In this document: positions 11,771-53,240 of the stretch, in pieces
How positions within the stretch are numbered: position 1 is the first letter of the stretch
How the letters are laid out: the number at the start of each line of letters is the position of its first letter
Assembly (NCBI GenBank): GCA_022841645.1
Contig: JALHRC010000006.1
Coordinates: 1 to 59,804, forward strand
DNA: 59,804 nucleotides
DNA from: Minisyncoccota bacterium
GTDB taxonomy: Bacteria; Patescibacteriota; Minisyncoccia; Phycocordibacterales; UBA918
Direction: 5' to 3'
Made by a program: the position numbers and the translations under genes
Notes under the pieces: model-generated
The model's database searches: none
Told to the model about the DNA's origin: nothing
What the model saw: only the letters and a program-made list of their open reading frames with translations

Positions 11771-12682
11771 TCACCTCCTCTCGTTGATATGCATGGAGTC
11801 GGGCCAGTACTGCCAGGCTTCTGCCTCGAGCTCAAGTACGGCACGAGCTAGAGCTTGGTCACGCTTTGCAATTCTTTTTGCGACCTCAAAAAGTTTGCCA
11901 AGCTTGATGCGAGAAGTGCCAAATAAATGGTCACCACACTGGTAGCGCCAGTAAACTCCGTATTCGGTACGAACCCCCTCAAACTTCACTTTGGCTAATA
12001 GTTCCCTGAGCGTAGCCATTTCACGTTCCAGCATTGCTTTGTATGAAGGGAGGTTGTCTCGCACCGCCTGCGTTCGTCGTCGACGGGATACCCCGAGCAA
12101 AGTAGCGGCTGCATCGTATGCGTCGGCATCACTTTTGATGACACCCAAAGCAGACCCAACCGAAAGTTGCAAAAGGATGGCCCTAAGTTCCCGGTTCGAA
12201 ATGCCTAATTCAGTATAGCTGAAGCCTTCTTGAAGATTACCGATGACCGCTAAGAAGCCAGTATTTAGACGCCGTAGTTGCTCTACGTAATATGCGCCAT
12301 CTCTCAAAGGGATTTCATGCAACATCGCCACTTCCCGCTTGAATTCGTTCAGACGCTCTGCCCGCGCTCGACGGGACTGATACACACTTTTGTCCTCAGC
12401 GTGATCAAGGTTCAAGAGGCGGCATAACACCCTCAGGCGCGAGAGGGCAGCCCGCAGCCCGTAAATTGTTGTTGCTTCGTTTCGCAACACTTCTCTCCAG
12501 AAGAGTACCTCAATTTCGTGTGTACGTTGCAAAAGAGCGCCGACTTTGTTGGCCGCTCTACGGTACTGCTTCACGAGCTCTGGGTTATTGTTGAAGAACG
12601 CCTCATCGATGCTCATAGCACCAGAACGCCACCGCTCCCCGTGCCACACACTCGGGAATCGTTTCTCCTTGGTAAGCAGCAT
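11771..12682 (-). CDS. orphan all-helical hypothetical protein (303 aa)
   Basis: Long ORF with a canonical SD (AGGAG, 7-nt spacer) and its own terminator. No recognisable motif. Confidence 0.7.
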   Translation of the reverse strand: MLLTKEKRFPSVWHGERWRSGAMSIDEAFFNNNPELVKQYRRAANKVGALLQRTHEIEVLFWREVLRNEATTIYGLRAALSRLRVLCRLLNLDHAEDKSVYQSRRARAERLNEFKREVAMLHEIPLRDGAYYVEQLRRLNTGFLAVIGNLQEGFSYTELGISNRELRAILLQLSVGSALGVIKSDADAYDAAATLLGVSRRRRTQAVRDNLPSYKAMLEREMATLRELLAKVKFEGVRTEYGVYWRYQCGDHLFGTSRIKLGKLFEVAKRIAKRDQALARAVLELEAEAWQYWPDSMHINERR

Positions 12683-12819
12683 GTCTCGTCTCCTGTTGGT
12701 GTGATACGTCTAATTAAACTTTACCATAAAAGTACTATAAGTAAATAGTACGTATGACAAAAAAGTATACAAAGAAGCTTTACAAAATAATGTTTTGTGA
12801 TATTTTGTAATAAGTAAGT

Positions 12820-13581
12820 ATGACAAGTAAATCGGAACTAGCCCACTCCCTAACTCAACTCGGCCTTGCCGAACGTGATGCCAGTGTTTATTTGTTTCTC
12901 CTTGAACGCGGGACGCCCTGGGCGCCGTCGAAGATTGCGCAGGCCCTTAGTCTGCCGCGCCAATACGTCCATCTTTCTCTGCAGCGCCTACTAGATTTGG
13001 TGCTCCTTGAAGAAGTACCGTCTGGAGTACGGCGCAAATATCGTGCGCTGCCGCCTTCATATGTCACCCGCATGGCGCGTGAGCGGCTTATTATGGCGGA
13101 ACGGACGGCCGTGGAGCTCGAAAAAATCTCAGGAATTGGCGCCACCCAAGACGCAGAAATTTATCGTGGCACACGGCAAATACTCGACTTTGAGGATCGA
13201 CTGGTCGACGGGTTACCGACTGACTGTGAGCAGTGGGGCATTGGTGGTGGTTTAGAAGCATTTCTCAACTTCTTTGGTGATAATTACGTACCCATCTCAC
13301 GGCGGGCGAATGAGAAACGATTGGTGACCTACTACATTGCGGCGCCTTGCGAGGTGGAAGGATTATCGGGAATGGTAAAAGGGGTGTTTGGTGAGCGCTT
13401 TAAAATCCGTGTCTTGCCCACCTTGCCAAAAACGCTAGTACAGACCGCTATTCGTTTTGACACGGTCACCCTTTACACGTTCGGCACGCCCCCGCTTGTA
13501 TACTTCCTTAAGTCACCGACCGTCGCCGCCGACTACAAAAAGTTTTTTATGATGCTGTGGGACATGGCAACGCCGTTGTAG
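12820..13581 (+). CDS. TrmB-family (winged-helix) transcriptional regulator-like protein
   Basis: 253 aa. The N-terminal LTQLGLAERDASVYLFLLERG..APSKIAQALSLPRQYVHLSLQRL resembles the TrmB HTH. Confidence 0.6.
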   Translation: MTSKSELAHSLTQLGLAERDASVYLFLLERGTPWAPSKIAQALSLPRQYVHLSLQRLLDLVLLEEVPSGVRRKYRALPPSYVTRMARERLIMAERTAVELEKISGIGATQDAEIYRGTRQILDFEDRLVDGLPTDCEQWGIGGGLEAFLNFFGDNYVPISRRANEKRLVTYYIAAPCEVEGLSGMVKGVFGERFKIRVLPTLPKTLVQTAIRFDTVTLYTFGTPPLVYFLKSPTVAADYKKFFMMLWDMATPL

Positions 13582-13643
13582 GTGGGAGTACTTGCCTCGA
13601 TCTACCCCAAGTGATACACTTTTGATACACCCGTCGTGTACCT

Positions 13644-13868
13644 ATGGCTACTACTAAAAACAGACTCAATATAAGCCTCTCGCCCGAATTGGACGCAGCG
13701 CTAGCGCTCAGTGCCAAGCGGGCGACGGTACCACGCGCTACCAAGGCGGCAGAATTGCTGCGTCTGGCCCTCGATATTGAAGAAGACATTATGCTCGATG
13801 TACTCGCTACTTCACGTGAGACCGAGAAAAAAGCGAAGTACGTTGACCACGACGCTGCCTGGAGCTAA
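13644..13868 (+). CDS. ribbon-helix-helix antitoxin
   Basis: 74 aa. RLNISLSPELDAAL is an RHH strand-helix start, and the gene lies immediately upstream of a RelE-like toxin. Confidence 0.75.
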   Translation: MATTKNRLNISLSPELDAALALSAKRATVPRATKAAELLRLALDIEEDIMLDVLATSRETEKKAKYVDHDAAWS

Positions 13869-13874
13869 ATAGCT

Positions 13875-14153
13875 ATGTATCACTTGGTCTACCACCTGCG
13901 AGTAGTCAGTGATGATATTCCGAGGCTTCCCAAGCGCTGGAAGGAGATTATTAAGGAAGCAATTTCGACCAAACTCCAGAAGGAGCCACTCTTGTTTGGT
14001 GCACCACTACGCTCGTCCTTAAAAGGCTTTCGCAAATTACGTGTTGGTGATTACCGTGTTGTGTTTTCAATACATGAGAACGAAGTACGAGTTCTTGCCA
14101 TTGCCCACCGTCGTGACGTGTACGAAAAAGTGATGAAGAAGCGTTACCAATAA
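13875..14153 (+). CDS. RelE/ParE-family toxin
   Basis: 92 aa. LKGFRKLRVGDYRVVFSIHENEVRVLAIAHRRDVY is typical of RelE/StbE. Confidence 0.85.
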   Translation: MYHLVYHLRVVSDDIPRLPKRWKEIIKEAISTKLQKEPLLFGAPLRSSLKGFRKLRVGDYRVVFSIHENEVRVLAIAHRRDVYEKVMKKRYQ

Positions 14154-14321
14154 GATTTCGTACTTTTTGCTACTGTATGAATTAAAACTGAGTTGGAGAG
14201 GTCGATTTGCATTAAAGCTGTGGGCAGCGTTGCGCTCATTTGGGTACGCAGAGTGATACAATGCACATATAAGTGACGTGTGCGTTTCTGCACGCGTCGC
14301 GTGTGTGATCTTTCTTGTACC

Positions 14322-16073: not shown

Positions 16074-16075
16074 TC

Positions 16076-26116: not shown

Positions 26117-26392
26117 TTGTGCGGGACTAAAGGGGGATGGGTCTTGCTCACAAAAGCTTCAACGGGTGCGCTGATCAATGCGCATCGTCAGCTCGATGCC
26201 AGCGGCCGCGGCGACACGGCACGGCTTCTCGGCCAGTACTGGACGAAAGCTGAAATCAAGGATGAGCTTTTTGCTCGCGCGAGCGCGGGCCAGGTGGAAG
26301 CCCTTACCTACGCAAAGGAGCGAGAATGGGAGCTCCCGCGCATGCCGTTCATTCTTCATGCGGAGATGGCAGCAGTATCGGCCTCTGCGTAG
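26117..26392 (+). CDS. possible small hypothetical protein
   Basis: 91-aa ORF, partly protein-like (LLGQYWTKAEIKDELFARASAGQVEALTYAKEREWE). It has no SD and its start is uncertain. Confidence 0.3.
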   Translation: MCGTKGGWVLLTKASTGALINAHRQLDASGRGDTARLLGQYWTKAEIKDELFARASAGQVEALTYAKEREWELPRMPFILHAEMAAVSASA

Positions 26393-26754
26393 TTCACAAG
26401 ACGGGGGCGAGCAATTCGGCTCGCCCCGCGACGGGTCGCCTTCACCGGCGATCTTTTCATTTGCGCAGGGTAGGTAGTTGACGGGGGGGTGGCAAGCCGG
26501 TACTGTAAAAGTGTCCGGCACGACCTTACTGCACGCCGTGCGCCAGGAGGTGTGACTGGACACCTGCAACTTTTTTGGAGAGCACGACATGCGTCGTCTC
26601 CCCCGCCGTGGGTTCCACCATCAGATCAGGGAGATCCGACCGCCACCTGACCGAAAACGATTACTCGGGCAATGACGCCCCGGTCTTGCTCGTGATGGGA
26701 AGCAAGTAACCAACGGGGTGCACCCCATCAGGCGACCACGAATGGTCGCACCTA

Positions 26755-26799
26755 GCCGAGGACGCGCTCTCTGCGCGGCCTCGGCCTTCTTCTTTTTGT
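26755..26799 (+). terminator. intrinsic terminator just upstream of comEC
   Basis: gccgagg.cgcgc pairs with gcgcg.cctcggc (12 bp), followed by cttcttctttttgt. Confidence 0.75.
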
Positions 26800-26810
26800 A
26801 TACTTACTCT

Positions 26811-28463
26811 ATGCCTATGCTTCTCTATGCTGGCATAGTGGCCTTTGGTGCGGGGGTGGCACTGCGCACCCTCGTTTCTGTGCCACTCTCACTGCTTGGT
26901 CTTCTCCTTGTTATTGCGACCGCAGTGGCTCTCATCGCGTGGCGCTATGGTGGTAGTACCCCGCTACTTTTGGTGTGCGTGGTGGTATGTTCACTGGTAG
27001 CTGGCATTGCCCGCACCGAACTTTCCTGGCGGGCGGTGGGTGACTCTTCACTTGCCAGTATGGTGGGAAGCGAAGTGGTACTTGAAGGTGTAGTGGCGCG
27101 CGAACCCCAGCTACGAGAGCGGTCACTCCATCTCTACCTGCGTACCGCTGATGGGGATCTCTTGCTTGTGACCACCGATCGCTACGAGGCGGTCGCCTAT
27201 GGCGACCGCCTGCGCACCACTGGCGCACTCACTGTCCCCGAATCATTTGAAACCGAACTCGGACGCACTTTCAACTATCCTGGCTACTTGCTCGCGCGCG
27301 GCGTCGAGTATCGTCTGAGTTACCCCGAACTCCAGGTACTGGAGCAGGGTCAAGGAAATATATTTCTCGCCCGTCTCTACGGGGCCAAGCAGCGTTTTGT
27401 GATGGCGCTTGGTGCGGTACTTCCCGAGCCAGCTTTTGGTCTTGGGGTCGGGCTACTCCTTGGGGTAAAGCAAGCGCTGGGTGAAGAACTGGAACGAGTG
27501 TTTCGCGTCACTGGTCTCACCCACATCGTCGTGCTCTCAGGCTACAACCTGTCGCTCGTGGTCGCGTTTGTGAGTTTTGTGCTGTCGTTTTTTCTGCGGC
27601 CACGGGCGCGTCTGATCGTTGGGCTCTTTGCTATTCTCGGATTTGCACTCATGGTCGGCCTTTCGGCGACAGTGCTGCGCGCCAGTCTCATGGCCGCCCT
27701 GGCTCTCATAGCGAGCACGTTTGGTCGGCAGTATTTGGTGATGCGCGCACTTCTCCTCTCAGCTGCGGCGATGCTCATGTGGAACCCGTTTCTCCTCCTC
27801 TACGACATCGGCTTTCAATTTTCGTTTATGGCAACGCTCGGTCTCATACTGGTGGCGCCACAACTAGAGACTGCCTTCACTCAAGGCAAGTTCATTTACA
27901 AATTACGCGAACTGCTAATTGCCACCGTGGCGGCGCAGGTGGCAGTGTTGCCGCTCCTTCTCTATCACATCGGTGAGATCTCGCTCGTGTCGGTGGTAGT
28001 TAATGTGCTGGTTTTGCCCATGGTACCAGTAGCGATGGGACTCACGTTTGCTACCGGTGTGCTGGCGCTCCTCTCACCTCCGCTCGCCACCTTGCTCGCC
28101 TACCCGACGACGCTCGTGCTTTCGTACGTCACGGGTATGGCCAGCGCTTGGGCCAGCCTCTCGTTTGCGGCGCTTCCGGTGCCCACGTTTTCTTTTGCCT
28201 GGGTGACAGTGGCGTACGCGCTGCTCTGGTACGGCTGTTACCGCGCTGGGTACTTTGCACCGGTCACCGCTCATGTGGTATCGCCTATGGGGCGTGAGAG
28301 AGATGCTTCCGAGGTGACTGCGACCGCCGACTGGACGATTGAGGAGGAATTGTTCGTAAAAGAGCAGCTAGCTAAAAAGGTCGCAGCCGGGCCCTCTTTA
28401 GAGGACCCGGCTGCGACCTTGAGCCAGCAGAACAAAAATGATCTACCCAGCTTCTTTCGTTAG
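26811..28463 (+). CDS. comEC: ComEC/Rec2 DNA-uptake channel (DUF4131 + Competence domains, no MBL domain)
   Basis: It has multiple TM helices and the competence-domain motif GLTHIVVLSGYNLSLV. ATG at 26811 (MPMLLYAG) was chosen. Confidence 0.88.
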   Translation: MPMLLYAGIVAFGAGVALRTLVSVPLSLLGLLLVIATAVALIAWRYGGSTPLLLVCVVVCSLVAGIARTELSWRAVGDSSLASMVGSEVVLEGVVAREPQLRERSLHLYLRTADGDLLLVTTDRYEAVAYGDRLRTTGALTVPESFETELGRTFNYPGYLLARGVEYRLSYPELQVLEQGQGNIFLARLYGAKQRFVMALGAVLPEPAFGLGVGLLLGVKQALGEELERVFRVTGLTHIVVLSGYNLSLVVAFVSFVLSFFLRPRARLIVGLFAILGFALMVGLSATVLRASLMAALALIASTFGRQYLVMRALLLSAAAMLMWNPFLLLYDIGFQFSFMATLGLILVAPQLETAFTQGKFIYKLRELLIATVAAQVAVLPLLLYHIGEISLVSVVVNVLVLPMVPVAMGLTFATGVLALLSPPLATLLAYPTTLVLSYVTGMASAWASLSFAALPVPTFSFAWVTVAYALLWYGCYRAGYFAPVTAHVVSPMGRERDASEVTATADWTIEEELFVKEQLAKKVAAGPSLEDPAATLSQQNKNDLPSFFR

Positions 28464-32779: not shown

Positions 32780-32793
32780 GAGATAGTGCCTAA

Positions 32794-33066: not shown

Positions 33067-33151
33067 ACTTATAACCATTGTATACACAACAGTTACTATC
33101 GTCAACACGAGCTAGGTTGGATGGGACGGAGGGTATGGTGAGCCTACAGTT

Positions 33152-42612: not shown

Positions 42613-44781
42613 ATGGCCCGAGAGTTTCCCCTAGAGCGTTTGCGCAACTTTGGTATCGTCGCCCACGTCGATGCCGGCAAGACCACGACCTCAGAGCGTG
42701 TGCTTTTCTATACTGGTATGAGCCACAAGATCGGTGAGGTGCATGATGGCGCCACCGTGACCGACTGGATGGAGCAGGAGCGCGAGCGCGGCATCACCAT
42801 CACTGCCGCAGCGATTTCGTGTAACTGGTCAAAGACCGAAGTGGTGGACCGCAAGGACAAGTCGCAGATGTACACCTTCAACATCATCGACACGCCAGGT
42901 CACATCGACTTTACCGCCGAAGTGAAGCGTTCGATGCGTGTGCTCGACGGCGCGGTTGTCGTATTCGACTCAGTGGCGGGCGTTGAACCACAATCCGAAA
43001 CCAACTGGGGCTACGCTGACGAAGCGAAAGTGCCACGTATTTGTTTCATTAATAAGATGGACCGTCTGGGGGCGGACTTTGAAAAGTCGTATAAGAGCAT
43101 CTTGGAGCGTCTCTCCAAGAAAGCCGTGCGGGTGCAGCTCCCGTGGGGTGGGGAAGAGAACTTTAAGGGTGTGATCGACCTCGTGAAAATGAAGGCCTAC
43201 ACCTTCACTGGAGAAATGGGTACGCTTATTACCGAAGTGGAGATTCCTGACGAACTCCGAGCGGACGCCGAGAAGTACCACGCCGAACTCGTTGAAAAAG
43301 TGGTGGAGCACGACGACACGCTCATGGAAGCTTTCCTTGGCGGTGAAATGCCAACGCTCGAAGATCTCAAGAAGACGCTCCGCAAGGCGGTGCTCGCCAA
43401 CCAACTCTTCCCTGTCTTTACCGGCTCAGCGCTCAAGAACATTGGCGTGCAGCTCGTCCTTGACGGTGTGGTGGACTATTTGCCCGCGCCGACCGACCTC
43501 GCTGACGTAAAAGGTACCAACCCTGATTCTGGTGAGGAGGAAACTCGCAAGCACTCAGATGATGAGCCACTTTCGGCGCTGGCTTTCAAGGTGCAAGACG
43601 ACAAGTTTGGCCAATTAGCTTTCTTCCGCGTGTACTCCGGTACGGTAAAGGCTGGCAGCTACATCCTTAATGCTACTACCGGCAACAAAGAACGAGTGGG
43701 TCGAATTGTACGCCTTTTGGCTGATAAACGAACAGAGGTTGAAGAGGTGTATGCTGGTGAAATTGCCGCCGGCGTTGGTTTTAAGGAGGTAAAAACTTCG
43801 CACACCCTGTGTGATGAGGCAAAGCCTATCGTGCTAGAGCAGATCGTGTTCCCTAATCCCGTGGTCGCGATGCGTGTTGAGCCAAAAACGAGGAATGACC
43901 AGGAGAAAATGGGTATGGCGCTTAAGCGACTCGCGGACGAAGACCCGACCTTTAAAGTCTCGACGGACGATGAAACCATGGAGACCATCATTGCTGGTAT
44001 GGGTGAGCTTCACCTCGAAATCCTCGTGGACCGTATGAAGCGCGAGTTCGGTGTGGAGGCCAACGTTGGTGCGCCACAGGTAGCCTACCGCGAAACGATT
44101 CAGCGTGAAGCGGAAGCGGACTACAAGTACGCCAAGCAGTCGGGTGGTCGTGGTCAATATGGTCACGTCAAGATCAAGATTCGTCCGATGCAACCTTTGC
44201 CAGAAGGTGAGACCGTGCCTAAGAATACTACTCGTGACGATCACTACGAGTTTGTGAACTCAATCAAGGGTGGTGCTATTCCAAACGAATATATTCCAGC
44301 TGTGATGAAGGGGTGTAAGGAGGCGATGGCGCGCGGTTTTGTGGCCGGCTACAAGATGGAGGATGTTACCGTCGAACTCTACGATGGTTCCTTCCACGAT
44401 GTGGACTCTTCAGAAATTGCCTTCAAGCTCGCAGCAATTTATGCCTTTAAGGAGGCGGCAGCCAAGGCGGGAGCAGTACTCCTTGAGCCAATTATGAAGA
44501 TCGAAGTGCGTACTCCGGAACAGTTTATGGGTGACATCAACGGTAACATTTCGAGTAAGCGTGGCCAGGTGATTGGTATGGGTGAGATCGGCGAGAAAAA
44601 GGTCATTACTGCTACGGTGCCGCTGAAAGAAATGTTTGGATATACCACGTCACTACGAGGTATGACTCAGGGTCGCGCCAGCATGACCATGACCTTCGAT
44701 CACTACGAGGTCGTACCGCCAAACGTGGCTGCTGATATCCGTAAGGCGAGAGGCGTAAAAGACGTTGAAGAGGAGGCCTAA
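42613..44781 (+). CDS. fusA: elongation factor G
   Basis: 722 aa with [17 protein letters not shown] and all five EF-G domains. Confidence 0.98.
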
Positions 44782-44859
44782 GCCGACGTATGTCTTTTGC
44801 GGATCTTGTGAGCTATCTTTGTGAGCGAAGCGAAACAAAGTAGCCACAAGGTGTACTGG

Positions 44860-45068
44860 CCGCTGTAAGCGGTGAAGGATGTGGAAGAAGAAGCCTAAGT
44901 AGGCTTCGCCCATATCCGGCAAGACCTTTTGAGCTCGTTTGCCCGAAGGGGAAAACGAGCCAGAAGGCTAAAATAATCTGGGAGATTATTTTAGAAGGTT
45001 GACAGCTACTTTGAAAAAGTAGCGACAACCTGAACAGCGTCTGTAAGACGGACAGCTTCTGTAAGAAG
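44860..45068 (+). other. array of seven short hairpins (candidate structured RNA / 3' UTR)
   Basis: Stems lie at 44860-72, 44890-907, 44933-60, 44968-94, 45005-23, 45038-50 and 45056-68. Three have the identical loop TGTAA and two have a GAA loop. Confidence 0.6.
44872..44898 (+). repeat. pseudo-copy 2 of the fusA 3' end (VKDVEEEA-stop)
   Basis: gtg aag gat gtg gaa gaa gaa gcc taa compares with fusA 44755-44781, gta aaa gac gtt gaa gag gag gcc taa. All six differences are synonymous third positions. Confidence 0.85.
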
Positions 45069-45092
45069 AAAGACGTTGAGGAAGAAGCCTAA
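45069..45092 (+). repeat. pseudo-copy 3 of the fusA 3' end (KDVEEEA-stop)
   Basis: aaa gac gtt gag gaa gaa gcc taa has three differences from fusA, all synonymous third positions. Confidence 0.85.
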
Positions 45093-45116
45093 ATCAGCTT
45101 TCAGCAGTGGACTAGT

Positions 45117-45152
45117 AAACAGCGGGCGGCCCCTTGGGGCCGCCCGCTGTTT
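45117..45152 (+). terminator. intrinsic terminator closing the fusA unit
   Basis: aaacagcgggcggcccc pairs with ggggccgcccgctgttt. Confidence 0.8.
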
Positions 45153-46039
45153 ACGAGCCCCACCACCACACCCGCGTGGTCTCTACCGCGCGGGTGTGGT
45201 GATCATAAAACAAGTGCCGGCGGTGGCCAGATCTTCTACTGGCAAACTACCCCCGATCCTGTGCTCTTGGTACAGGGTAGTTTACAATTAGCCCACCATC
45301 TCTTAGACTTTAGGCTAGTGACGAAAACGTTCAGGAGGGAAAATGTTTAAGCCGTTTCCGTGTCACATTACCCCCCCCAAGAGTTCATGGAGGAGCGTAA
45401 TAAAGCGCGAAACATCGCGCTTGGCTGGACGCTCCGTGAAAGGCGCGGCCTTTTGGCGGTGTGGCCGGAGCTCAGTTACGCCCTGATTCTTCTACAGAGG
45501 GCTATCGTGAGGTGGTGTAGATGAATAAAAACGACCCCTCGAAGCAGCGAGCATTTCTGGCGGGACTCAGAAGAGCTGCCAGCAAGCTCGTGGCTAGGTG
45601 CCAACAAAATCCGAGATTCGCAAGGCTGCTGCTCAAGAGCCTTGCGCCGAAAGAGCCAAGAAAGCTACGATGGCGAAAGAAATGAATAGCGGTCGGCAGG
45701 TTCCCCTAGAAGCAGGGAGCCTGCCGGCCGCTCTAATGTTTGACTCCCATCTTCCATCCACAAACGTATCCTTGCATGGTCTGTGTGGCCCTGAATTATC
45801 TGTGTCCTCTAGAGCAAGCGACAGCTTGCATTTGCTGGCTGCTTTCTGTACTATTCCCACACCGTCACGTCTCCCCCAGTGGGTGGTCTCGTGAAGGAGC
45901 GACCATAATTGCTCTTTTACACGCTGGAGTGTGAAGTCTTCGCGCGCCTGTTCTCGCGCCGCGGCGACTCTACACTCACCACGTTATTCGTGGGAGGCTG
46001 TGAACGGTACTTATTTACCCTTAGTAGCAGTCTTTTAGT

Positions 46040-47239
46040 ATGACTACATTTGATCGCAGCAAGCCGCACGTCAACGTCGGTACTATTGGCCACGTCGACC
46101 ACGGCAAGACCACCCTCACCGCCGCCATCCTTAACACGCTCAACAAGCGTGGTAATGGGTACAACGCGAGCGTGAAGGGCGTCGAGGATATCGACAAAGC
46201 TCCAGAAGAGAAGGCCCGCGGTATTACTATCTCGCTCTCACACTCTGAGTACGAGACGCCAAACCGTCACTACGCGCACATCGATGCGCCCGGTCACGCC
46301 GACTACATTAAGAACATGATCACGGGTGCGGCGCAGATGGACGGCGCGGTACTTGTGGTGGCTGCGACCGACGGTGCAATGCCACAGACGCGTGAGCACG
46401 TACTTTTAGCGAAGCAAGTTGGTGTACCAAAGATCATCGTCTTCCTCAATAAGGTAGATATGGTGCCTGAACACGAACGGGAAGACATGATTGGCCTTGT
46501 GGAGGAAGAACTCCGTGAACTCCTTACCAAGAATGGTTTTGATGGTGCTAGCGCTCCAGTTATTAAGGGCTCGGGCCTTAAGGCACTCGAGGATCCCTCT
46601 TCTGAGTGGGGCAACAAGATCATCGAGCTCGTTGATGCGATGGACACGTACTTCCCGATGCCAGTACGTGATCTCGATAAGCCATTCCTGATGCCGATTG
46701 AAGACATCTTCTCAATTGAAGGTCGCGGTACGGTGGTAACTGGACGCGTAGAGCGCGGCGCGGTAAAGGTTGGTGAAGAAGTAGAAATCGTTGGTATCAA
46801 GCCAACTGCTGCTACTACTGTTACTGGTGTGGAAATGTTCAACAAGCAGCTCGATGCTGCCCAGGCTGGTGACAACGCTGGTATTCTCCTCCGTGGTGCC
46901 AAGAAGGAAGACGTGCATCGTGGCCAGGTACTCGCTAAGAAGGGTAGTGTTACCCCGCACACCGATTTTGAAGCTGAGGTCTACGTTCTCTCGAAAGAGG
47001 AAGGTGGTCGCCACACCCCATTCTTTACGGGCTACAAACCACAGTTCTACATCCGTACGACCGACGTAACGGGTGAGGTAACCCTCGCTGACGGTGTCGA
47101 GATGGTAATGCCAGGCGACACCGCGAAGTTTAAGGTGAAGCTCGTAGCGCCAGTTGCGCTCGAAGACCAGCAGAACTTTGCTATCCGCGAGGGTGGCAAG
47201 ACGGTGGGGGCGGGTGTGGTTACCAAGGTTGTGGCGTAA
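46040..47239 (+). CDS. tuf: elongation factor Tu
   Basis: 399 aa with GHVDHGKTT and DAPGHADY. Confidence 0.98.
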
Positions 47240-47267: not shown

Positions 47268-47618
47268 ATGGCCACTGATTCCGCAAAGAAGGAAGCCAAG
47301 GCGCCAGGCGAGATTGGCAAACTGCGCATTCGAGTGCGTGCCTATGAGCACAAAATCCTCGATGCGTCAGTAAAGCAAATCATCGATACGGCCGCCCGCT
47401 TCGATGTGAAGGCAGTGGGACCCATTCCACTTCCCACCGAGATCAAGAAATACACGGTCAATCGCTCGACCTTCGTGCACAAAGATGCGCGAGAACAGTT
47501 CGAGATGCGTATGCACAAGCGAGTGATAGACATTCTGAATCCCGGACCAAAGATCATTGAAGCGCTCACGAATCTCTCACTGCCATCCGGCGTGAACGTG
47601 GACGTGAAGATGATGTAA
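47268..47618 (+). CDS. rpsJ: 30S ribosomal protein S10
   Basis: 116 aa. LRIRVRAYEHKILD...PLPT....YTVNRS.FVHKD is the S10 signature, with a short N-terminal extension. Confidence 0.96.
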   Translation: MATDSAKKEAKAPGEIGKLRIRVRAYEHKILDASVKQIIDTAARFDVKAVGPIPLPTEIKKYTVNRSTFVHKDAREQFEMRMHKRVIDILNPGPKIIEALTNLSLPSGVNVDVKMM

Positions 47619-47625
47619 ACCAACA

Positions 47626-47677
47626 GCCCGACATACCAAAACACCCCTACCAAGGGGTGTTTTGGTATGTCGGGCTT
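47626..47677 (+). terminator. 23-bp perfect-stem hairpin directly after rpsJ
   Basis: agcccgacataccaaaacacccc (47626-48) pairs with ggggtgttttggtatgtcgggct (47655-77). Only a short T tract follows. Confidence 0.65.
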
Positions 47678-47741
47678 TACATAAATTCCTTGATAGTTTA
47701 CGTTACATCCGAAAGCACCTTCACAGAGCAGGAGAACTACC

Positions 47742-48155
47742 ATGCCAACGCTCACATTGAACCTGGAAGTAGATGAGGAGCTTCCCCGCCTTCAAGCGTT
47801 ACAATTTGTCAGGGATCCGGTGCGAAAACGACGCGTCGGTACTCGTGTACCACTCGTCGGGGCTGGATTACTCGGGCCACTTAAACTAACTGATCACGTT
47901 AGGGCACATTTGGAAACGGTGCTCGAGGCCATGAATAGATGGTCGCCGGAAGCTGCGCCAACAAAAATACTCGACTCTATTCTAGCGAATGGAAATAGAC
48001 CAATAGATGGGGTTATCCAAGGGTATGCCGTAGATCATTTGCGGGAAGAGCTCAATAGGGCCCTGCCTGAAGTGGGGCTTCGTTTCTCACTTCCACACCA
48101 CGGGCATAAAACCCAGTTGTGGGTTCGAGAGGTTAAAAGGTCGAAAAGAGGCTAG
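47742..48155 (+). CDS. orphan hypothetical protein inserted between rpsJ and rplC
   Basis: 137-aa ORF with a canonical SD (AGGAG, 7-nt spacer). It uses AGA, AGG, ATA and CTA codons. No motif. Confidence 0.6.
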   Translation: MPTLTLNLEVDEELPRLQALQFVRDPVRKRRVGTRVPLVGAGLLGPLKLTDHVRAHLETVLEAMNRWSPEAAPTKILDSILANGNRPIDGVIQGYAVDHLREELNRALPEVGLRFSLPHHGHKTQLWVREVKRSKRG

Positions 48156-48377
48156 TTGCTACCGCTATTTTGTACAGGGGCTATGTGCGATCAAGGGTGT
48201 CTTCGGATACACTTCGTGACAATACGCTGGTGGGGGATAACCCATGTGATACGCTTTTTGCAGAGCATCCCGTTTCCTCTGCGTCTAGCGTTGCGAGATT
48301 GATCGCATGTACGGGCTAATACCGCTCATATGGTCTTCGGATCAAAGCCAATTGGCGCCAGCCTCTGCCCACCCCTT

Positions 48378-48412
48378 TGGGTCCAGCTATACTACGCTGG
48401 ACCCCTTTTCTT
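48378..48412 (+). terminator. intrinsic terminator
   Basis: gggtccagc-tatactac-gctggaccc followed by cttttctttat. Confidence 0.8.
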
Positions 48413-48540
48413 TATCTAACCGAGGGCCACTTGCCCTTTTTTAAATATCGTGTAGAGTTGCGGGCAACGTATATAAGACCTACGTCCCCCCAAAAAATAT
48501 GAGGCTAATTACCTCGGGGAACCAATGGGCAGATGCACTT

Positions 48541-48582
48541 CCGCGGCTTCGTGGGGCACTGTCCCTGGGCCGCGGTTTTGTG
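48541..48582 (+). promoter_or_regulatory. attenuator-like hairpin + T-run in the rplC leader
   Basis: ccgcggc (48541-47) pairs with gccgcgg (48569-75), followed by ttttgtgt. It lies 113 nt upstream of the rplC ATG. Confidence 0.5.
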
Positions 48583-48612
48583 TACACACATTTATTTCCT
48601 ATAAGCAGCTAT

Positions 48613-48698
48613 TCATCCCGTTAGAAGTATTTCTATCTGGATGAGGTAACCAGCACCACGATTAGTATGATTATCAATAATAACTTCTAACGGGATGA
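48613..48698 (+). promoter_or_regulatory. 16-bp perfect long-range stem sequestering the rplC start codon
   Basis: tcatcccgttagaagt (48613-28) is the exact reverse complement of acttctaacgggatga (48683-98), which contains the ATG at 48695. Confidence 0.55.
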
Positions 48699-49297
48699 AA
48701 TTCGTTCTCGGAACTAAAGAGCGCATGACCCAAGTGTTTTTGGGCGACGGCCGGGCCTTTGCTGGTACGGTGTTGCGGGTTGCCCCCCACACGGTCGCGC
48801 AGGTGAAGACAGACGAGAAGGACGGCTACGTGGCGGCCCAGGTCGTGACCAGTCCTCAGAAAGAGGCGCGCGTAGCTAAAGCACAGCGGGTAGCTCATGG
48901 TGGCGCTTTTAAGGTGGCGCGTGAAATCGCGGGATCAGATCTCGAGAAGGGCGCTACCTTCGACGTATCGGTCTTTGCGCCCGGAGACACCATTAGTGTC
49001 ACGGCGATCAGCAAGGGTAAGGGCTTTCAGGGTGTGGTAAAGCGACACGGCTTTAAGGGCGGTCGTCGCAGTCACGGTCAGAAGCACTCGGAGCGTGAAC
49101 CAGGTTCGATCGGTGGCGGTGGCCGCGCTGGTGGTCGCGTCATTAAAGGCATGCGCATGGCTGGCCGCATGGGCGGTGACACCATTACCGTTAAGAACCT
49201 CAAGGTACTGCAGGTGAATGTGGCGGAAAACCTCCTCCTCGTTTCCGGTGCCGTACCAGGGCGACGCGGTACCTTAGTCGAGGTGCGTAGCATCTAA
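48695..49297 (+). CDS. rplC: 50S ribosomal protein L3
   Basis: 200 aa. It has GKGFQGVVKRHGF.G and other L3 motifs. Confidence 0.97.
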   Translation: MKFVLGTKERMTQVFLGDGRAFAGTVLRVAPHTVAQVKTDEKDGYVAAQVVTSPQKEARVAKAQRVAHGGAFKVAREIAGSDLEKGATFDVSVFAPGDTISVTAISKGKGFQGVVKRHGFKGGRRSHGQKHSEREPGSIGGGGRAGGRVIKGMRMAGRMGGDTITVKNLKVLQVNVAENLLLVSGAVPGRRGTLVEVRSI

Positions 49298-49313
49298 TTT
49301 TATTTAGCAACAT

Positions 49314-50009: not shown

Positions 50010-50010
50010 T

Positions 50011-50370: not shown

Positions 50371-50386
50371 AGCGTAACAGCCTCGT

Positions 50387-51250
50387 ATGAAATTCTATAA
50401 ACCAACCTCAGCCGGCCGTCGTGATGGCTCGGTGATTGAGTACAAAAAGAAACTAACGTCGACCAAGAGTGAGCCCCACAAGCGTCTTGCCCATGGCAAG
50501 CGTTCGACGGGTGGACGCAACAACCAGGGACGTACCACGAACTTCTACCGCGGCGGTGGCGAAAAGCGCCTCTATCGTGAGGTGGACTTCCGCTACGACA
50601 AGAAGGGTGTGCCAGCGCGTGTCGAGACCATCGAGTACGATCCTAACCGTTCTGGTTTTATCGCGCTTGTGCTCTACCGTGATGGTGAGCGTCGCTACGT
50701 GCTCGCTCCCCAGGGCCTTAATAAGGGTGACGAGATGTTGACCGCCGAAGATGCCAAGCCAAAAATTGGTAATCGTCTCCCGCTCTCAGCGATCCCCGTT
50801 GGTGCCTTTGTGTACAACGTGGAGGTGAAGCCAGGGAAGGGCGCCCAGCTCGCCCGCAGCGCCGGCAACTACGCAGAAGTAGTAGCACACGACGGTGCCT
50901 ACACTCTCGTGAAGCTCCCTTCGACCGAAATCCGCAAGGTTCTCGGCACCGCCTGGGCTTCGATCGGAGCAGTCAGTAACGAAGAGTACCGCCTCGTTGA
51001 TCTTGGTAAGGCCGGTCGTGCCCGTGGCCGTGGACAGCGCCCAAAGAACCGTGGTTCTGCTCGTAACGCGGTTGACCACCCACACGGTGGTGGTGAAGGC
51101 CGCAGCCCGCGTGGTCACCGTCGTCAGCGCACTCGCCAGGGTCGCCCGACTGGTAAGGGCCAGAAGACACGTTCGCCAAAGAAGTACTCAAATCCATTTA
51201 TCGTCGAACGCCGCAAGCCGGGTCGCCTCATGCGAAACGGCGGGAAGTAG
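50387..51250 (+). CDS. rplB: 50S ribosomal protein L2
   Basis: 287 aa. It has RNAVDHPHGGGEGR. Confidence 0.98.
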   Translation: MKFYKPTSAGRRDGSVIEYKKKLTSTKSEPHKRLAHGKRSTGGRNNQGRTTNFYRGGGEKRLYREVDFRYDKKGVPARVETIEYDPNRSGFIALVLYRDGERRYVLAPQGLNKGDEMLTAEDAKPKIGNRLPLSAIPVGAFVYNVEVKPGKGAQLARSAGNYAEVVAHDGAYTLVKLPSTEIRKVLGTAWASIGAVSNEEYRLVDLGKAGRARGRGQRPKNRGSARNAVDHPHGGGEGRSPRGHRRQRTRQGRPTGKGQKTRSPKKYSNPFIVERRKPGRLMRNGGK

Positions 51251-51270
51251 GAAGGGGAGAACGAAGGACA

Positions 51271-51315
51271 AAAAGCAAGCAGCGCGGCCCCTTGGGGGCC
51301 GCGCTGCTTGCTTTT
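51271..51315 (+). terminator. strong intrinsic terminator directly after rplB (inside the canonical S10 operon)
   Basis: aaaagcaagcagcgcggcccc pairs with ggggccgcgctgcttgctttt, a 17-bp GC-rich stem plus a T-run. Confidence 0.85.
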
Positions 51316-51497
51316 AGTATTATATTATGTTATAATAAGAACGTACGTCAACCCTAACCAGGGAGGTGACCATGTGTAAACGAATAGGATAATCCTTATT
51401 TGAATTACACGCACCCAGATCTTTCTAAGCTCGACTTCGTCGAGGAGGATGGGGTGCGAACGCAACCCATACTTCCAATGACACGAAGGAGAGTCCA

Positions 51498-52466
51498 ATG
51501 ACCTACAACCAGCCGACGGCTCGCCCGCTTCCCGCCACGCTCCCGGAGTACATCCTCGTCGAGGTGTATCTCTCCGAGTACCGTGGACGGGAACAGTGGG
51601 TCGCCGAGTATCGCCTCGCCTACAACGGCAAGGCGAGCGACTACCTCAAGGTGGTCGTGAACTTCCGGCGTCACCAGCGGCCGAGCGAGGGTTTGTGGTG
51701 GGTGAAGCCCACCACCATGGCCCCGCATCTGTGGTTGGTCTTTGCCGAAGCCTACGCCGAGGCGTCTGACTATCGTGCACCGCCCCCGGTGCGGACTGGC
51801 GATGAGCTCGTGTTGCTGTGGGGCGGTAACGAAAATCAGCGTGTCGCGCACCGCGATGGCTGGACCTTCCGCTTCGGTTCGGTGTGCCCGCTTCTTTTCG
51901 ATGATGAGTTGTGGCGGGTGCAGGTCGAGCGAATCGACCCGAGCCGCGGTTACATCACCGTGTCGTCTCTCGGGCCTGATCCTCGGGCAGTGGAGCAGCT
52001 GACGCGGCCGATCGGCTACGTCGGCATCTACTCGCTTGACGGTGAGCTCCTCGTTGAGGGGAATGTCTGCTACTCCCACTTCGAAGGAGGGGCGGGAAGG
52101 GTGGATGGCGAGTCAGAACTTGGGCGTCCGTTCCAGGTCAAGGTCGAGTATATGCGGCGGCATAACAACCGCCTCATTGGATCGGTCCTTATCTTGAAGG
52201 ACTTCCAGTCCGAGGCTCGTCTCGCCGCCGAACTGGTGCTCATCGAAGGGCCGCCCGTGCCCTTCGCCTCGAATGATTCGGTGGTGAGTTCTGCATCTAT
52301 GCGGACCATCTCGAAGCCACCGTTCGAGGTGGAAGACAGTGACGACCGTGACCACTACGACGACGACATCGTCCGCCGTGAAGAGATCGAGAACTCCGAA
52401 CGGCCGGAGGTCGACTACGACCCCGAGGACGTCGAGCGCTACATCTACGGCGCCGACGAAGACTAA
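51498..52466 (+). CDS. orphan protein with acidic C-terminal tail, inserted between rplB and rpsS
   Basis: 322-aa ORF with an SD (AAGGAGAG) and very GC3-rich codons (25 of the first 30). The tail is EDSDDRDHYDDD...YDPEDVERYIYGADED. No motif recognised. Confidence 0.7.
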   Translation: MTYNQPTARPLPATLPEYILVEVYLSEYRGREQWVAEYRLAYNGKASDYLKVVVNFRRHQRPSEGLWWVKPTTMAPHLWLVFAEAYAEASDYRAPPPVRTGDELVLLWGGNENQRVAHRDGWTFRFGSVCPLLFDDELWRVQVERIDPSRGYITVSSLGPDPRAVEQLTRPIGYVGIYSLDGELLVEGNVCYSHFEGGAGRVDGESELGRPFQVKVEYMRRHNNRLIGSVLILKDFQSEARLAAELVLIEGPPVPFASNDSVVSSASMRTISKPPFEVEDSDDRDHYDDDIVRREEIENSERPEVDYDPEDVERYIYGADED

Positions 52467-52502
52467 GACTAGGGCCTGAGCATGCCCGACTACTACTGCT
52501 CA

Positions 52503-52538
52503 CGCCGGACACCCACGTGGTGCTCCGGCGGTTTTTTT
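52503..52538 (+). terminator. intrinsic terminator
   Basis: cgccgga pairs with tccggcg, followed by seven T. Confidence 0.8.
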
Positions 52539-52539
52539 A

Positions 52540-52584
52540 AGGTACTGCATTAAATACGTATTTAATGCAGTACCTGCTTTTTTT
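52540..52584. terminator. 36-bp perfect palindrome followed by T-run (second tandem terminator)
   Basis: aggtactgcattaaatacgtatttaatgcagtacct (52540-75) is followed by gcttttttt. Confidence 0.75.
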
Positions 52585-52727
52585 GTGTAATTTTGCATAC
52601 TTATTATCTTGTGCTACATTTTCCTTATGCACGTTCGTGCTTCATTCATTAAGACCATTACCAAGAAAATCCGCCTCGGCGGTGCACTTGCGTGATGGTA
52701 CAGTGACGAGACGGACGACGACACGCA

Positions 52728-52757
52728 TGAAAGCCCCGCCACGATAGTGGCGGGGCT
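52728..52757 (+). terminator. hairpin immediately upstream of the SD of ORF 52788
   Basis: aaagccccgccac-gata-gtggcggggcttt followed by ccgttcttc. Confidence 0.55.
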
Positions 52758-52787
52758 TTCCGTTCTTCAAATCAGGGAGGAAGTGAG

Positions 52788-53240
52788 ATGGATGGTTCCG
52801 ATTATCCGCAATCACCACACGACTGGAGCCTGGCTCGCACTGCGACCGAGCGGCCAGTGTTGCTAAGGCTTGCGCGCCACCCCGACCGAGGAGTGCGGCT
52901 CGGCTTACTACACAACATCCTTGTCGACCCGCCGTGGGCCGACGCCATAGCGCGGCTTGAACTGAAGTCGGCGGGGAACGAACTGCCGCTTGTGCGTCGC
53001 GAGGTGGCGCGCAGCCGCCGCGTGTCGCCCGAGCTCCTCTGCGAGGTGGCGCTGTGCGGCGAGTGGGAGGTGTGGGCGATCGTACTCCATAACCCCGAAT
53101 GTCCGCACACCGTGCTCGAGATTATCGTCTCGTTTACGAGCGCCGACGCTGCGGTAGTGCGTGAATATGCGTACCTTGTCTCGCGTGCTAAGGAGATCAT
53201 CAAGGAACGCGCGAAGGCTGCACCAAGCCGCGCCCCCTAG
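52788..53240 (+). CDS. HEAT/leucine-rich-variant-like repeat protein (tentative)
   Basis: 150 aa with an SD (GGGAGG). It has repeated helical units (LLRLARHPDRGVRLGLLHN; VRREVARSRRVSPELLCEVA; VWAIVLHNPECPHTVLEII). It is GC3-rich. Confidence 0.6.
   Translation: MDGSDYPQSPHDWSLARTATERPVLLRLARHPDRGVRLGLLHNILVDPPWADAIARLELKSAGNELPLVRREVARSRRVSPELLCEVALCGEWEVWAIVLHNPECPHTVLEIIVSFTSADAAVVREYAYLVSRAKEIIKERAKAAPSRAP

Follow-up and report, generated by a model that had tools for sequence, protein, structure and literature searches.

The window analysed here, a stretch of 59,804 nt of DNA from a tiny, groundwater-type Minisyncoccota bacterium, raises the question of why several orphan ORFs are preceded by canonical Shine-Dalgarno (SD) motifs when the named genes around them are not, and of what such a motif means in this host. 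The original prediction held that native genes lack SD motifs and orphan inserts carry them, that the latter were acquired from SD-using organisms, and that the motif is independent evidence that these ORFs are real.

SD motifs and orphan ORFs in the window

Rescanning the window reproduced the dichotomy: the named native genes have no GGAG-like element, and the six listed orphans and micro-ORFs have AGGAG, GGAGG or GGGAG 4-7 nt before an ATG. With gene calls and starts that are our own (longest-ORF start and dicodon score) rather than curated annotation, GGAG, GAGG and AGGA are absent within 20 nt of the longest-ORF start of hup, clpP, ppa, nusA, pilC, tpiA, pgk, zwf, gnd, fusA, tuf, rpsJ, rplC, rplD, rplW, rplB, rplV, rpsC, rplP and the pilin genes. 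The alternative starts of ten rechecked genes likewise lack an SD, the exception being a doubtful GTG start of rpmC. Weak or odd matches were found at three genes not named in the original prediction, VTT (GGAG, spacer 2), parE (GGAG, spacer 10) and rpmC (AGGAG, spacer 4, lying within the rplP coding sequence). Among the 70 window genes, by our own tally from the ORF and Pfam listings, an SD 5-mer at spacer 4-10 precedes 4/16 genes without a Pfam match versus 1/54 genes with one (Fisher p=0.008; binomial p=1.6e-5 relative to the control-window rate of the genome). As 12/16 of the Pfam-less genes have no SD, the dichotomy is not one between native genes and all orphans.

The six cases differ in how well they hold up as genes. 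The 303-aa ORFan o303 (11771..12682, minus strand) lies between nusA and a TrmB-like gene, and the motif scan places AGGAG at 12690..12694 on the same strand, 7 nt before its ATG (start 12682). It has no Pfam match, is found in 0/60 congeners, and retrieved no homologue in a word-seeded search and only marginal matches (E about 1e-5) in a full HMMER scan; its GC3 is 0.55, and its coding score is +0.19 in its own frame and no higher than -0.20 in any of the five others. The coding status of o137 (47742..48155, plus strand), an ORFan of 137 aa that lies between rpsJ and rplC, with AGGAG at 47730..47734 (+), 7 nt before its ATG, is uncertain: neither a Pfam match nor a homologue was found in the homology search, its GC3 is 0.46, and its coding score is -0.02, yet still the highest of the six frames. 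Between rplB and rpsS lies o322 (51498..52466, plus strand), a 322-aa orphan with AGGAG at 51487..51491 (+), 6 nt before its ATG, a GC3 of 0.78 and a coding score of +0.40. Three homologues at 57-60% identity were retrieved among 5.8 billion proteins; 40 congeners gave a single match, weak and partial, and neither 400 other Patescibacteria nor the phage collection gave any. The 150-aa orphan o150 (52788..53240, plus strand; GC3 0.73), inserted in the S10 region, has GGAGG at 52776..52780 (+), 7 nt before its ATG. Its one syntenic homologue among 60 congeners, in genome G009, is 49% identical and has a merely purine-rich upstream region (AGGAAAGGGA, 7 nt, ATG) rather than GGAGG.

The remaining two cases are micro-ORFs. 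An SD-like element reported as GGAGAG at 26589 is indeed present, with its motif and coordinate corrected to GGGAG at 26598..26602 (minus strand), 7 nt before an ATG at 26590; the ORF itself (26159-26590, minus strand) is doubtful, scoring -0.12 versus +0.22 for the opposite-strand ORF at 26117-26392 (+). In the fusA-tuf gap, a micro-ORF of 47 codons starts at 45343 with AGGAGG at 45333..45338 (+), spaced 4 nt from its ATG; the motif and coding-score checks gave no coding evidence for it. Judging from homology, outside support for a real ORF is limited to o322 and o150, with none for o303 and o137; the motif does not serve, as had been proposed, as independent evidence that the ORFs are real. 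No donor for o303, o137, o322 or o150 was found across the protein, Patescibacteria and phage searches.

Three variable insertion sites lie within the str/S10 ribosomal-protein cluster of the window, and the inserts are bounded by long hairpins. A perfect, terminator-like 24-bp hairpin after rpsJ (47625..47676) bounds the first insertion site, and a 24-bp hairpin after rplB (51268..51318), terminator-like on both strands, bounds the second. An 18-bp perfect palindrome follows o322 (52540..52575), and a GC-rich hairpin lies at the end of o150 (53226..53251, plus strand). The 3' end of fusA is repeated twice, its last 8 codons recurring downstream in the fusA-tuf gap (44757..45100, plus strand) as two remnants, at 44872-44899 and 45069-45092, which each translate to KDVEEEA-stop. 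No integrase or transposase domain was detected by Pfam among the window ORFs.

Native start signals and loss of the anti-SD

Genome-wide, the signal at native starts is a -10 promoter box, located 6-9 nt ahead of the ATG. The top enriched upstream words are TATACT (51 versus 7.5 expected) and TGCTAT (34 versus 5.8 expected), and TANNNT ends at positions -9 to -6 of 64, 52, 54 and 95 genes, respectively, with a background of about 15 per position, giving 265 genes versus about 61 expected. The box is present in 249/968 non-SD genes (about a quarter) and in 0/35 genes with an SD 5-mer, and the frequency of G at -15 to -5 of native genes is 0.17-0.24. Within the window, TATACT ends 7 nt before an internal comEC ATG at 26811 (26797..26813, plus strand), and the same pattern is seen at gnd (40852, CATAAT) and zwf (39444, TACACT). 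In a congener, genome G019, the TANNNT box was counted 85 times versus 24 expected. A -10 box so near the ATG points to leaderless mRNAs, and we infer from it that native genes are probably transcribed in this manner.

The genome's own partial 16S rRNA gene (contig C11) reads GGATTAATTCC, versus GGATCACCTCC in the canonical 16S, and has GGATTAATTCCAATTGGATAC following helix 45; CCTCC was not found within its last 1560 nt. The C11-type tail recurs in 11/11 congeners and a variant tail likewise lacking CCTCC in 9/9 genomes of the order's other families, so that 20/20 relatives examined across the order have no CCTCC. Elsewhere in Patescibacteria, CACCTCCTT, which includes CCTCC, is kept in 28/28 16S genes. 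The canonical 16S on contig C38 is foreign, being only 72.9% identical to that of C11. A search for the ribosomal protein uL1 (PF00687) detected it in 14/14 control genomes and not in the present one (G000), whose assembly, at 97.9% completeness, makes the absence likely rather than certain.

Since the own 16S lacks CCUCC, the SD motifs are not readable by canonical pairing in this host. The original prediction had allowed that an absent or altered anti-SD would leave the motifs meaningless; an altered tail, with no working canonical SD in the host, is what was found. It had overlooked the cause of the missing native SDs, namely anti-SD loss together with probably leaderless starts. Over 1046 genes, upstream regions bind neither the canonical tail (-3.42 versus -3.81 kcal/mol in control windows) nor the native tail (-2.11 versus -2.26 kcal/mol) better than control, and upstream regions show no excess of GGAAT, which is complementary to the altered tail. 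Genes with an SD 5-mer reach -10.1 kcal/mol with the canonical tail versus -4.3 with the native one; GGAG can form three Watson-Crick pairs and one G-U with the native UUCC, worth about -3.6 to -4.0 kcal/mol.

A genome-wide minority of SD-led genes

An SD 5-mer at spacer 4-10 precedes 35/1046 genes versus 10.4 expected (p=1e-9), with a positional spike of 31 5-mers ending at -10 to -6 versus about 10 per 5-nt bin and a spacing peak at 6-8 nt. SD 4-mers are barely enriched (132/1056 versus 110-122 in control windows), and several of the genes concerned belong to the conserved core. In the top GC3 decile, the 5-mer count is 16/105 versus 1.0 expected from control windows of the same genes, and in the lowest quartile of codon typicality it is 22/262 versus 1.6 expected; the top two quartiles show no excess (7/523 versus 6.8 expected). 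The excess is confined to genes of atypical codon usage or high GC3, a phage contig and insertion gaps. SD-led genes have a median GC3 of 0.64 versus 0.57 (p=2e-9) and an atypical per-codon score of 0.20 versus 0.39 (p=3e-8), are short and cluster in islands, and 19/29 of the scattered ones have no Pfam match. The scan and codon-usage check called for by the original prediction separate two classes statistically, in G019 as well. An extended native-style -10 box 14-60 nt upstream was found for 6/27 SD-led genes on native contigs versus 70/905 non-SD genes (p=0.018), which suggests that SD-led genes are set up for expression in the host as leadered mRNAs.

Part of the class sits on contigs of another character. 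Contig C12 is a 41-kb phage genome, and C12, C16 and C23 have the native -10 box at 0/51, 0/16 and 0/18 genes and hold 13, 4 and 5 SD-led genes, together 22/78. With these contigs and all contigs below 10 kb removed, the 5-mer count is 23/904 versus 9.0 expected (p=6e-5), and 14/226 versus 1.4 expected in the lowest typicality quartile.

The pattern recurs in the first 400 kb of G019, where an SD 5-mer, often extended to AGGAGGT, precedes 32/359 genes versus 3.6 expected, with 30/179 in the lower half of codon typicality versus 2/180 in the upper half; 29 of these 32 genes have no Pfam match, and the single 16S match in that genome lacks CCUCC. In three 20-kb stretches of G019, 11/12 SD-led genes lie wholly in segments without a DNA match in four congeners, where by hand tally about 54% of the DNA does match (binomial p=0.0014). 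SD-led genes sit in gaps of conserved synteny and are absent from congeners. In one conserved gene pair, the sole difference is a GGGAGG that follows the common -10 box and precedes the ATG in G019 but not in G000, which shows that native genes can gain or lose an SD. Being inserted does not in general go with being SD-led, since an SD is missing from 69/78 inserted ORFs in the S10 regions of 20 congeners.

A DUF1194 gene on contig C9, SD-led, has no counterpart above the family cut-off in 300 other Patescibacteria, and its best plasmid matches are from Alphaproteobacteria (up to 54% identity). For this gene, a foreign origin is shown directly. The proposal that SD-led ORFs were acquired from SD-using organisms is supported by their foreign-looking GC3 and codon usage, their position in synteny gaps and their absence from congeners; for the window orphans no donor was found.

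Origin and function of the SD-led genes

We consider it probable that this real dichotomy reflects recently inserted DNA from SD-using donors, the SD motifs being donor fossils that the host ribosome does not read; the original interpretation is partly supported. In the proposed mechanism, a host of the Patescibacteria (Parcubacteria/Paceibacteria type) would have lost the CCUCC anti-SD from its 16S, as in the whole order sampled, and because of that loss its native genes would be without SDs. Operon-first genes would place a -10 box 6-9 nt before the ATG and be read as leaderless mRNAs, and internal operon genes would start without any G-rich signal. The SD minority (some 3% of genes in this genome and some 9% in the 400 kb sampled from G019), with canonical SD and canonical spacing, would be recent acquisitions from SD-using donors or from the donors' mobile elements that have retained the donor ribosome-binding sites. 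Lacking canonical SD:anti-SD pairing in the host, the motif would be a fossil bound to decay, and any translation of these genes would start from leadered transcripts along the SD-independent route of the host. We infer a foreign origin for most SD-led genes and non-function of their motif. Their Pfam-less majority is unlike ordinary genes of well-studied SD-using bacteria, which points to an unknown pool such as phages or other Patescibacteria. Intact SDs on 9% of G019 genes are a lot for pure fossils. The SD would mark recently inserted DNA here, the signal itself being a marker of foreignness.

An alternative is that the SD-like motif functions despite the lost anti-SD, setting accessory genes apart as a second expression class with leadered transcripts. 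GGAG might pair weakly with the altered UUCC tail, a purine-rich leader might act through a protein or by opening structure, or another RNA might serve as partner. The sharp spacing peak, the strong extended motifs of G019 despite its CCUCC-less 16S, the native-type -10 boxes further upstream, the GGGAGG that lies between a conserved -10 box and the ATG of a conserved G019 gene and the leftover pairing of about -4 kcal/mol with the native tail are all consistent with function. We nevertheless judge it unlikely, given that enrichment is zero in native-codon genes of both genomes and for GGAAT, which would pair perfectly with the native tail, that pairing energy falls by more than half from the canonical to the native tail, that GGAGG is not kept in the sole available homologue pair (o150 and its G009 counterpart) and that SD-led genes are not conserved across congeners. 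A signal of transcription rather than translation, in which GGAGG at -14 to -6 is a promoter element of an alternative sigma factor yielding leaderless accessory transcripts, would account for the SD 5-mer and the native -10 box being equally far from the ATG, and for the two signals excluding each other. The same coincidence of distance is, however, reported for ordinary SD sites in M. tuberculosis in the available part of PMC6028130, the motif agrees with the consensus of a canonical SD down to the extension AGGAGGT, no common upstream partner motif was seen by eye in 59 aligned upstream regions, and some SD-led genes have separate -10 boxes further upstream, all of which makes a sigma-factor element extremely improbable.

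That the SD-led class is a binning or assembly artefact, with DNA of SD-using organisms or phages mixed into the MAG, appears very unlikely to us, even though the assembly does hold foreign DNA such as the C38 16S and the phage contig, and C12, C16 and C23 contribute over a quarter of SD-led genes. The enrichment remains without those contigs, native ribosomal genes flank the window orphans on both sides, and G019, a genome of two contigs, has the same class interspersed in conserved synteny. Logan contigs of four DNA runs, which stem from one study that may be the assembly's source and are not independent of it, span 47498-48724 or further and so join rpsJ, o137 and rplC; they also bridge fusA, the gap and tuf, and the o322 and o150 contigs equal the rplB contig in depth in each run. 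Chance occurrence of SD-like words from base composition alone might explain the barely enriched 4-mers, including those at conserved core genes, and the rpmC motif within rplP. For the 5-mer class it is rejected by the positional spike, the GC3 and codon strata and the G019 replicate, quite apart from the threefold overall excess, and its probability is negligible.

Comparison with known systems

Loss of the anti-SD in a subgroup of Parcubacteria has already been published: Tsurumaki et al. (2022, RNA 28:1041; PMC9297842) describe, in the portion of the paper available, members that lack CCTCCT and uL1 and in which SD helices probably do not form. The genome studied here resembles that subgroup in its 16S 3' end without CCTCCT and in uL1 not being found, but the same portion of that paper describes neither a replacement of the SD nor an SD-led gene minority. 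The promoter box at a fixed short distance from starts recalls group C of GeneMarkS-2 (Lomsadze et al. 2018, PMC6028130), characterized in the sections available as having leaderless transcription of operon-first genes with a Pribnow box 6-8 nt from the start codon, as in Actinobacteria and Deinococcus-Thermus. Group C's remaining genes use an SD according to those sections, whereas the remaining native genes here show no SD excess. Group B, described there as having a non-SD RBS close to the starts of leadered genes and as frequent in the FCB group/Bacteroidetes, is likewise a partial match.

Like group B, native genes here are without SDs genome-wide, and unlike it, the dominant upstream motif here is a promoter box. 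The 16S tail also differs from both groups: group C genomes keep the anti-SD, which is gone here, and in Bacteroidetes the sequence is intact but sequestered, in contrast to the mutated one here.

The SD-led genes themselves are best compared to the atypical, horizontally transferred gene class, which on average makes up 8-9% of genes in prokaryotic genomes according to the available part of PMC6028130. They resemble that class in being deviant in GC3 and codon usage, short, located in islands and absent from relatives, and differ from its usual members in additionally bearing a translation signal not canonically readable by the recipient ribosome.

Start sites in the window

The window makes up contig C6 in a 1.12 Mb assembly (G000) of 57 contigs with a GC content of ~52%. 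Pfam scans of its 77 ORFs confirmed the gene names given in the original prediction, among them hup, clpP, tig, ppa, nusA, pilB/pilC, the pilins, tpiA, pgk, recJ, comEC, sod, rpsL/rpsG, zwf/gnd/pgl, fusA, tuf and the S10/spc ribosomal cluster, and left 16 genes without a Pfam match (among the 69 called plus the ORF o137). An Rfam scan of the window gave no match. It had been claimed that native genes lack a Shine-Dalgarno (SD) sequence while orphan inserts carry a canonical one, and both halves of this description were borne out at the level of the start sites. Within the 30 nt upstream of 60 starts, and of alternative starts of 10 genes, GGAG, GAGG and AGGA are absent up to 20 nt from every native gene named there. 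All six proposed SD-like sites are present, each in front of an ATG: AGGAG at 7 nt for o303 (start 12682, minus strand) and o137 (start 47742), AGGAG at 6 nt for o322 (start 51498), GGAGG at 7 nt for o150 (start 52788), AGGAGG at 4 nt for a micro-ORF at 45343, and GGGAG at 7 nt for an ORF at 26590 on the minus strand. Counting only SD 5-mers (AGGAG/GGAGG-like) with a spacer of 4-10 nt, 4/16 Pfam-less genes are SD-led versus 1/54 genes with a Pfam match (Fisher p=0.008), the single exception being rpmC, whose start there is a doubtful GTG within rplP. The window also holds two ParE-type toxin-antitoxin-like pairs amid housekeeping genes (13644-14153 and 32525-33108); the parE at 13875 is preceded by GGAG with a spacer of 10.

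The native 16S rRNA

Two 16S pieces are present in the assembly, on contigs C38 and C11. The 16S on C38 (a 2.4-kb contig, 2364 nt) ends in GGATCACCTCCTTTCT; given an identity of just 72.9% between it and the C11 16S, C38 is foreign, contaminating DNA in the bin. It is a 16S-ITS-tRNA fragment with a GC content of 57% and a canonical CACCTCC tail. The 16S on C11, a 41-kb contig, is broken by an insertion of ~0.8 kb after model position ~1387, resumes at helix 45 and then reads GGATTAATTCCAATTGGATAC; the mature native 3' end should lie in or just past ...GGAUUAAUUCC, without CCUCC. This insertion (minus strand, ~690-1445 of the stretch L002, near 39.4-40.2 kb of C11) contains an ORF, and a group II intron D1-D4 model matches it weakly, its 32.1 bits falling short of the gathering score of 35 bits.

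We searched 41 genomes for 16S tails and obtained a 16S match in 22 only. The C11-type tail is common to all 11 congeners having a 16S 3' end, and all 9 genomes from the order's other families have tails lacking CCTCC (TATTTCC, TTCTTCC, TCATTCA, TAATTCA and others). As a positive control, the best 30 matches from a phylum-wide sample of 120 genomes were taken, a choice of best-scoring matches that biases the set towards canonical genes; CACCTCCTT is kept in 28/28 of those bearing the anchor word, the other two lacking that word. Judged from its gene, the organism's own ribosome is thus without an anti-SD. An absent or altered 16S anti-SD had been named in the original prediction as grounds for rejecting it, and a native tail without CCTCC is what was found.

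In an alignment (A2) of 40 16S 3' ends, the word standing in place of the anti-SD has its complement 3-4 nt downstream, and both change in step (TTCC..GGA(A), TTCA..TGAA); in canonical relatives the pair is CTCC..GGAG. Pairing of the altered tail and its trailer in a hairpin is predicted to yield negligible energy in 12/14 order sequences (0 to -1.9 kcal/mol), the remaining two giving -1.7 and -3.7 kcal/mol, the latter from a different stem, and we therefore make no structural claim.

The native start signal

In G000, 1077 genes were called with a self-trained dicodon model and longest-ORF starts, a procedure that uses no RBS information. By base frequencies G is not enriched upstream of these starts, and a free-energy scan gave no stronger binding of upstream regions than of control windows to either the canonical or the native 16S tail. 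GGAAT, which could serve as an SD pairing with the altered tail, was also considered and rejected, as it is not enriched. The most enriched upstream words include TATACT (51 versus 7.5 expected), GCTATA, TGCTAT, TACAAT and TATAAT, which jointly are an extended -10 promoter box. TANNNT ends 6-9 nt before ATG (positions -9 to -6) in 64, 52, 54 and 95 genes, against a background of ~15 per position; this spacing is that between a -10 box and a transcription start. Position -1 of starts genome-wide is T in 47-49%, A in 14-16% and G in 10-11%.

An SD-led minority across the genome

AGGAG/GGAGG shows a sharp positional spike in G000, with 31 occurrences ending at -10..-6 against ~10 per 5-nt bin and a peak spacer of 7. 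With a spacer of 4-10, an SD 5-mer precedes 35/1046 genes versus 10.4 expected (p=1e-9; the expectation is set by five control windows for this gene set). The number rises to 16/105 in the top GC3 decile (1.0 expected) and 22/262 in the lowest quartile of codon typicality (1.6 expected); the two most typical quartiles together give 7/523, against 6.8 expected. The genome-wide scan that the original prediction proposed as its check thus places the SD excess only in compositionally odd genes, with none in typical ones. The native box and the SD are mutually exclusive, the box being found in 249/968 non-SD genes and 0/35 SD-5-mer genes. No paralogues were found among 79 SD-led proteins.

Two further sites may be recorded here. 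A second, divergent ClpP-family gene of 179 aa at 77270-77809 of contig C2 (471-1010 of stretch L101, minus strand) starts behind an SD (AGGAG, spacer 7), unlike the native clpP of the window (5639-6241). On contig C3 near 55480, the minus-strand reading contains 13 nt that match the canonical 16S tail word exactly; their opposite strand is an extended SD (AAAGGAGGTGATC) 7 nt before a TTG, which looks like a further SD-led start, uncounted under the longest-ORF rule.

The pattern recurs in G019, a two-contig congener whose single 16S match has the same altered tail, sampled stretch by stretch over its first 400 kb with a model trained on G019 itself. Here 32/359 genes have an SD 5-mer (3.6 expected), often as extended AGGAGGT; 30/179 are in the lower half of codon typicality and 2/180 in the upper half, and 29/32 lack a Pfam match. 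TANNNT ends at -9..-6 in 85 genes versus 24 expected. Across three 20-kb stretches, of which ~54% of the DNA matches congeners by a hand tally of rows, 11/12 SD-led genes lie wholly within segments unmatched in the DNA of four congeners (p=0.0014), and the twelfth has a partial match in one congener.

Part of the SD-led class is probably on DNA that is not from the organism's chromosome. Contig C12, 41 kb long, is a phage genome that looks complete, encoding helicase, primase, terminase, portal, protease, capsid, tape measure, endolysin and polymerase, and its TerL has a best match of 47% identity, the matches spanning hosts of many phyla. Native -10 boxes precede 0/51 genes on C12, 0/16 on C16 and 0/18 on C23, which carry 13, 4 and 5 SD-led genes, respectively, an enrichment of SD-like sites in each; these three contigs may be misbinned or phage of a different host. 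Contig C23 has phage-type DAM-like and DUF5681 genes, and C16 has Wzy and AsnB-like genes. When the three contigs and all contigs <10 kb are removed, the enrichment is 23/904 versus 9.0 expected (p=6e-5), with 14/226 versus 1.4 expected in the lowest typicality quartile.

Insertion sites in the str/S10 cluster

In 20 congeners the str/S10 cluster is interrupted at the same three places as in the window, with content that varies between species: between fusA and tuf (44782-46039 in the window; congener gaps of 283-2465 nt), between rpsJ and rplC (47619-48694; 512-6205 nt), and between rplB and rpsS (51251-53980; 836 nt to >6.5 kb, in most cases enclosing a DUF2103 gene on the reverse strand). 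SD-led starts occur in 9/78 inserted ORFs of these congener regions (4 with 5-mers) versus 1/231 core ORFs (Fisher p=2e-5). The other 69/78 inserts have no SD, many having a -10 box instead, and therefore "inserted" does not equal "SD-led".

The window's inserts are flanked by long perfect hairpins after rpsJ, rplB, o322 and o150. The last eight codons of fusA (44757-44789; KDVEEEA-stop) are repeated downstream with synonymous differences at 44872-44899 and 45069-45092, as if integration or recombination had repeatedly left scars at the 3' end of fusA; a strain variant in Logan contigs joins 44940 to 45054 there, the two positions being separated by 33 other letters. A minority variant (C>A and a 1-nt deletion at 51461 and 51470) lies in the rplB-o322 spacer just upstream of the o322 SD, at a depth of ~8-16 of 61-83 and in all four DNA runs.

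Contigs of these four runs (X1-X4), which belong to one study that is possibly the source of the assembly, so that the check is not independent of it, span fusA-gap-tuf (44745-46288) and rpsJ-o137-rplC (47498-48724 or further). The contigs carrying o322 (51431-52569) and o150 (52546-53393) equal the rplB contig in depth in every run. Bridging and equal depth argue against a chimera. Among the sequencing runs listed as containing the window DNA, none is of RNA. Logan joints that skip o322/o150 (51192 to 53706) were discounted as too short, having a side of 20 letters.

Probable foreign origin of the SD-led genes

The GC3 of o322 and o150 is 0.78 and 0.73. In congeners, rplB is present in 38/40 genomes, o322 in 1/40 (a weak partial match), o150 in 1/60 and o303 in 0/60, and orthologues of SD-led genes are nearly absent from the relatives sampled. 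Three unnamed homologues of o322 (57-60% identity) were retrieved among 5.8 billion proteins, and no relatives in 400 Patescibacteria (0/400), a phage collection, or genome and metagenome contig collections. Neither o303 nor o137 has homologues, a full HMMER scan of o303 returning only marginal matches (E ~1e-5 or worse), and no donor was found for the window's orphans. Elsewhere in G000, 19/29 scattered SD-led genes lack a Pfam match. For an SD-led gene on contig C9 that encodes a DUF1194 protein, 300 other Patescibacteria yielded nothing above the family cut-off; among plasmids, it is matched best by sequences from Azospirillum, Rhizobium and Microvirga (up to 54% identity).

Interpretation

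The dichotomy is real, both in the window and genome-wide; its meaning differs from that originally proposed. Native genes lack an SD, most likely because the lineage lost its anti-SD and initiates on SD-free or putatively leaderless mRNAs, and the SD-led genes are most likely recent imports that retain the signal of their donors. Binding of SD-5-mer upstream regions would reach -10.1 kcal/mol with a canonical tail and only -4.3 kcal/mol with the native one, so that, to the extent that sequence can tell, this host is ruled out as a user of canonical SDs.

Several observations count against the SD being a pure fossil, that is, a donor signal kept in a host unable to read it canonically. The share of SD-led genes in G019 is high, and an extended -10 box lies 14-60 nt upstream of 6/27 SD-led genes on native contigs versus 70/905 non-SD genes (p=0.018). 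In one conserved gene a GGGAGG separates the -10 box from the ATG in G019 but not in G000; the pair are secreted-protein orthologues of 67% identity with a GATAAT box in both (930-953 of stretch L232 in G019; C2 ~27500-27530 in G000). Between o150 and its homologue in the congener G009, the sole homologue pair available, only a purine-rich stretch is kept. On the alternative reading, canonical SDs in anti-SD-less Parcubacteria mark distinct, fast-turnover, leadered ORFan cassettes inserted at fixed hot spots, some of them within the ribosomal-protein cluster itself; the SDs would then be selected, GGAGG being recognised without a 16S anti-SD or intended for other ribosomes than those of the carrier, for example after transfer to SD-using cells. 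We regard this alternative as improbable.

If SDs are instead retained from donors, they would serve as a composition-independent marker of recent imports in any anti-SD-less lineage, their decay could date those imports, and reduced genomes would acquire and retain foreign ORFans at few fixed sites, including the highly conserved S10 cluster. SD-trained gene finders would misplace native starts and favour foreign genes, which matters for the annotation of Patescibacteria. If the motif works without an anti-SD, this bears on the old question of how far SD function depends on 16S pairing.

Within the open-access literature searched, no paper was found that treats leaderless starts as how this anti-SD-less group natively initiates translation, and nothing on the anti-SD in Patescibacteria or on leaderless initiation in Parcubacteria; for the CPR more broadly, a single listed paper uses the word "leaderless", and it concerns YchF. 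Among the papers listed on the anti-SD in the candidate phyla radiation, only PMC9297842 treats its loss, already describing it for a Parcubacteria subgroup lacking uL1; uL1 was not found in the G000 genome. The -10 box at its distance from the ATG has its counterpart in the leaderless "group C" genomes, for which PMC6028130 describes such a box as the signature.
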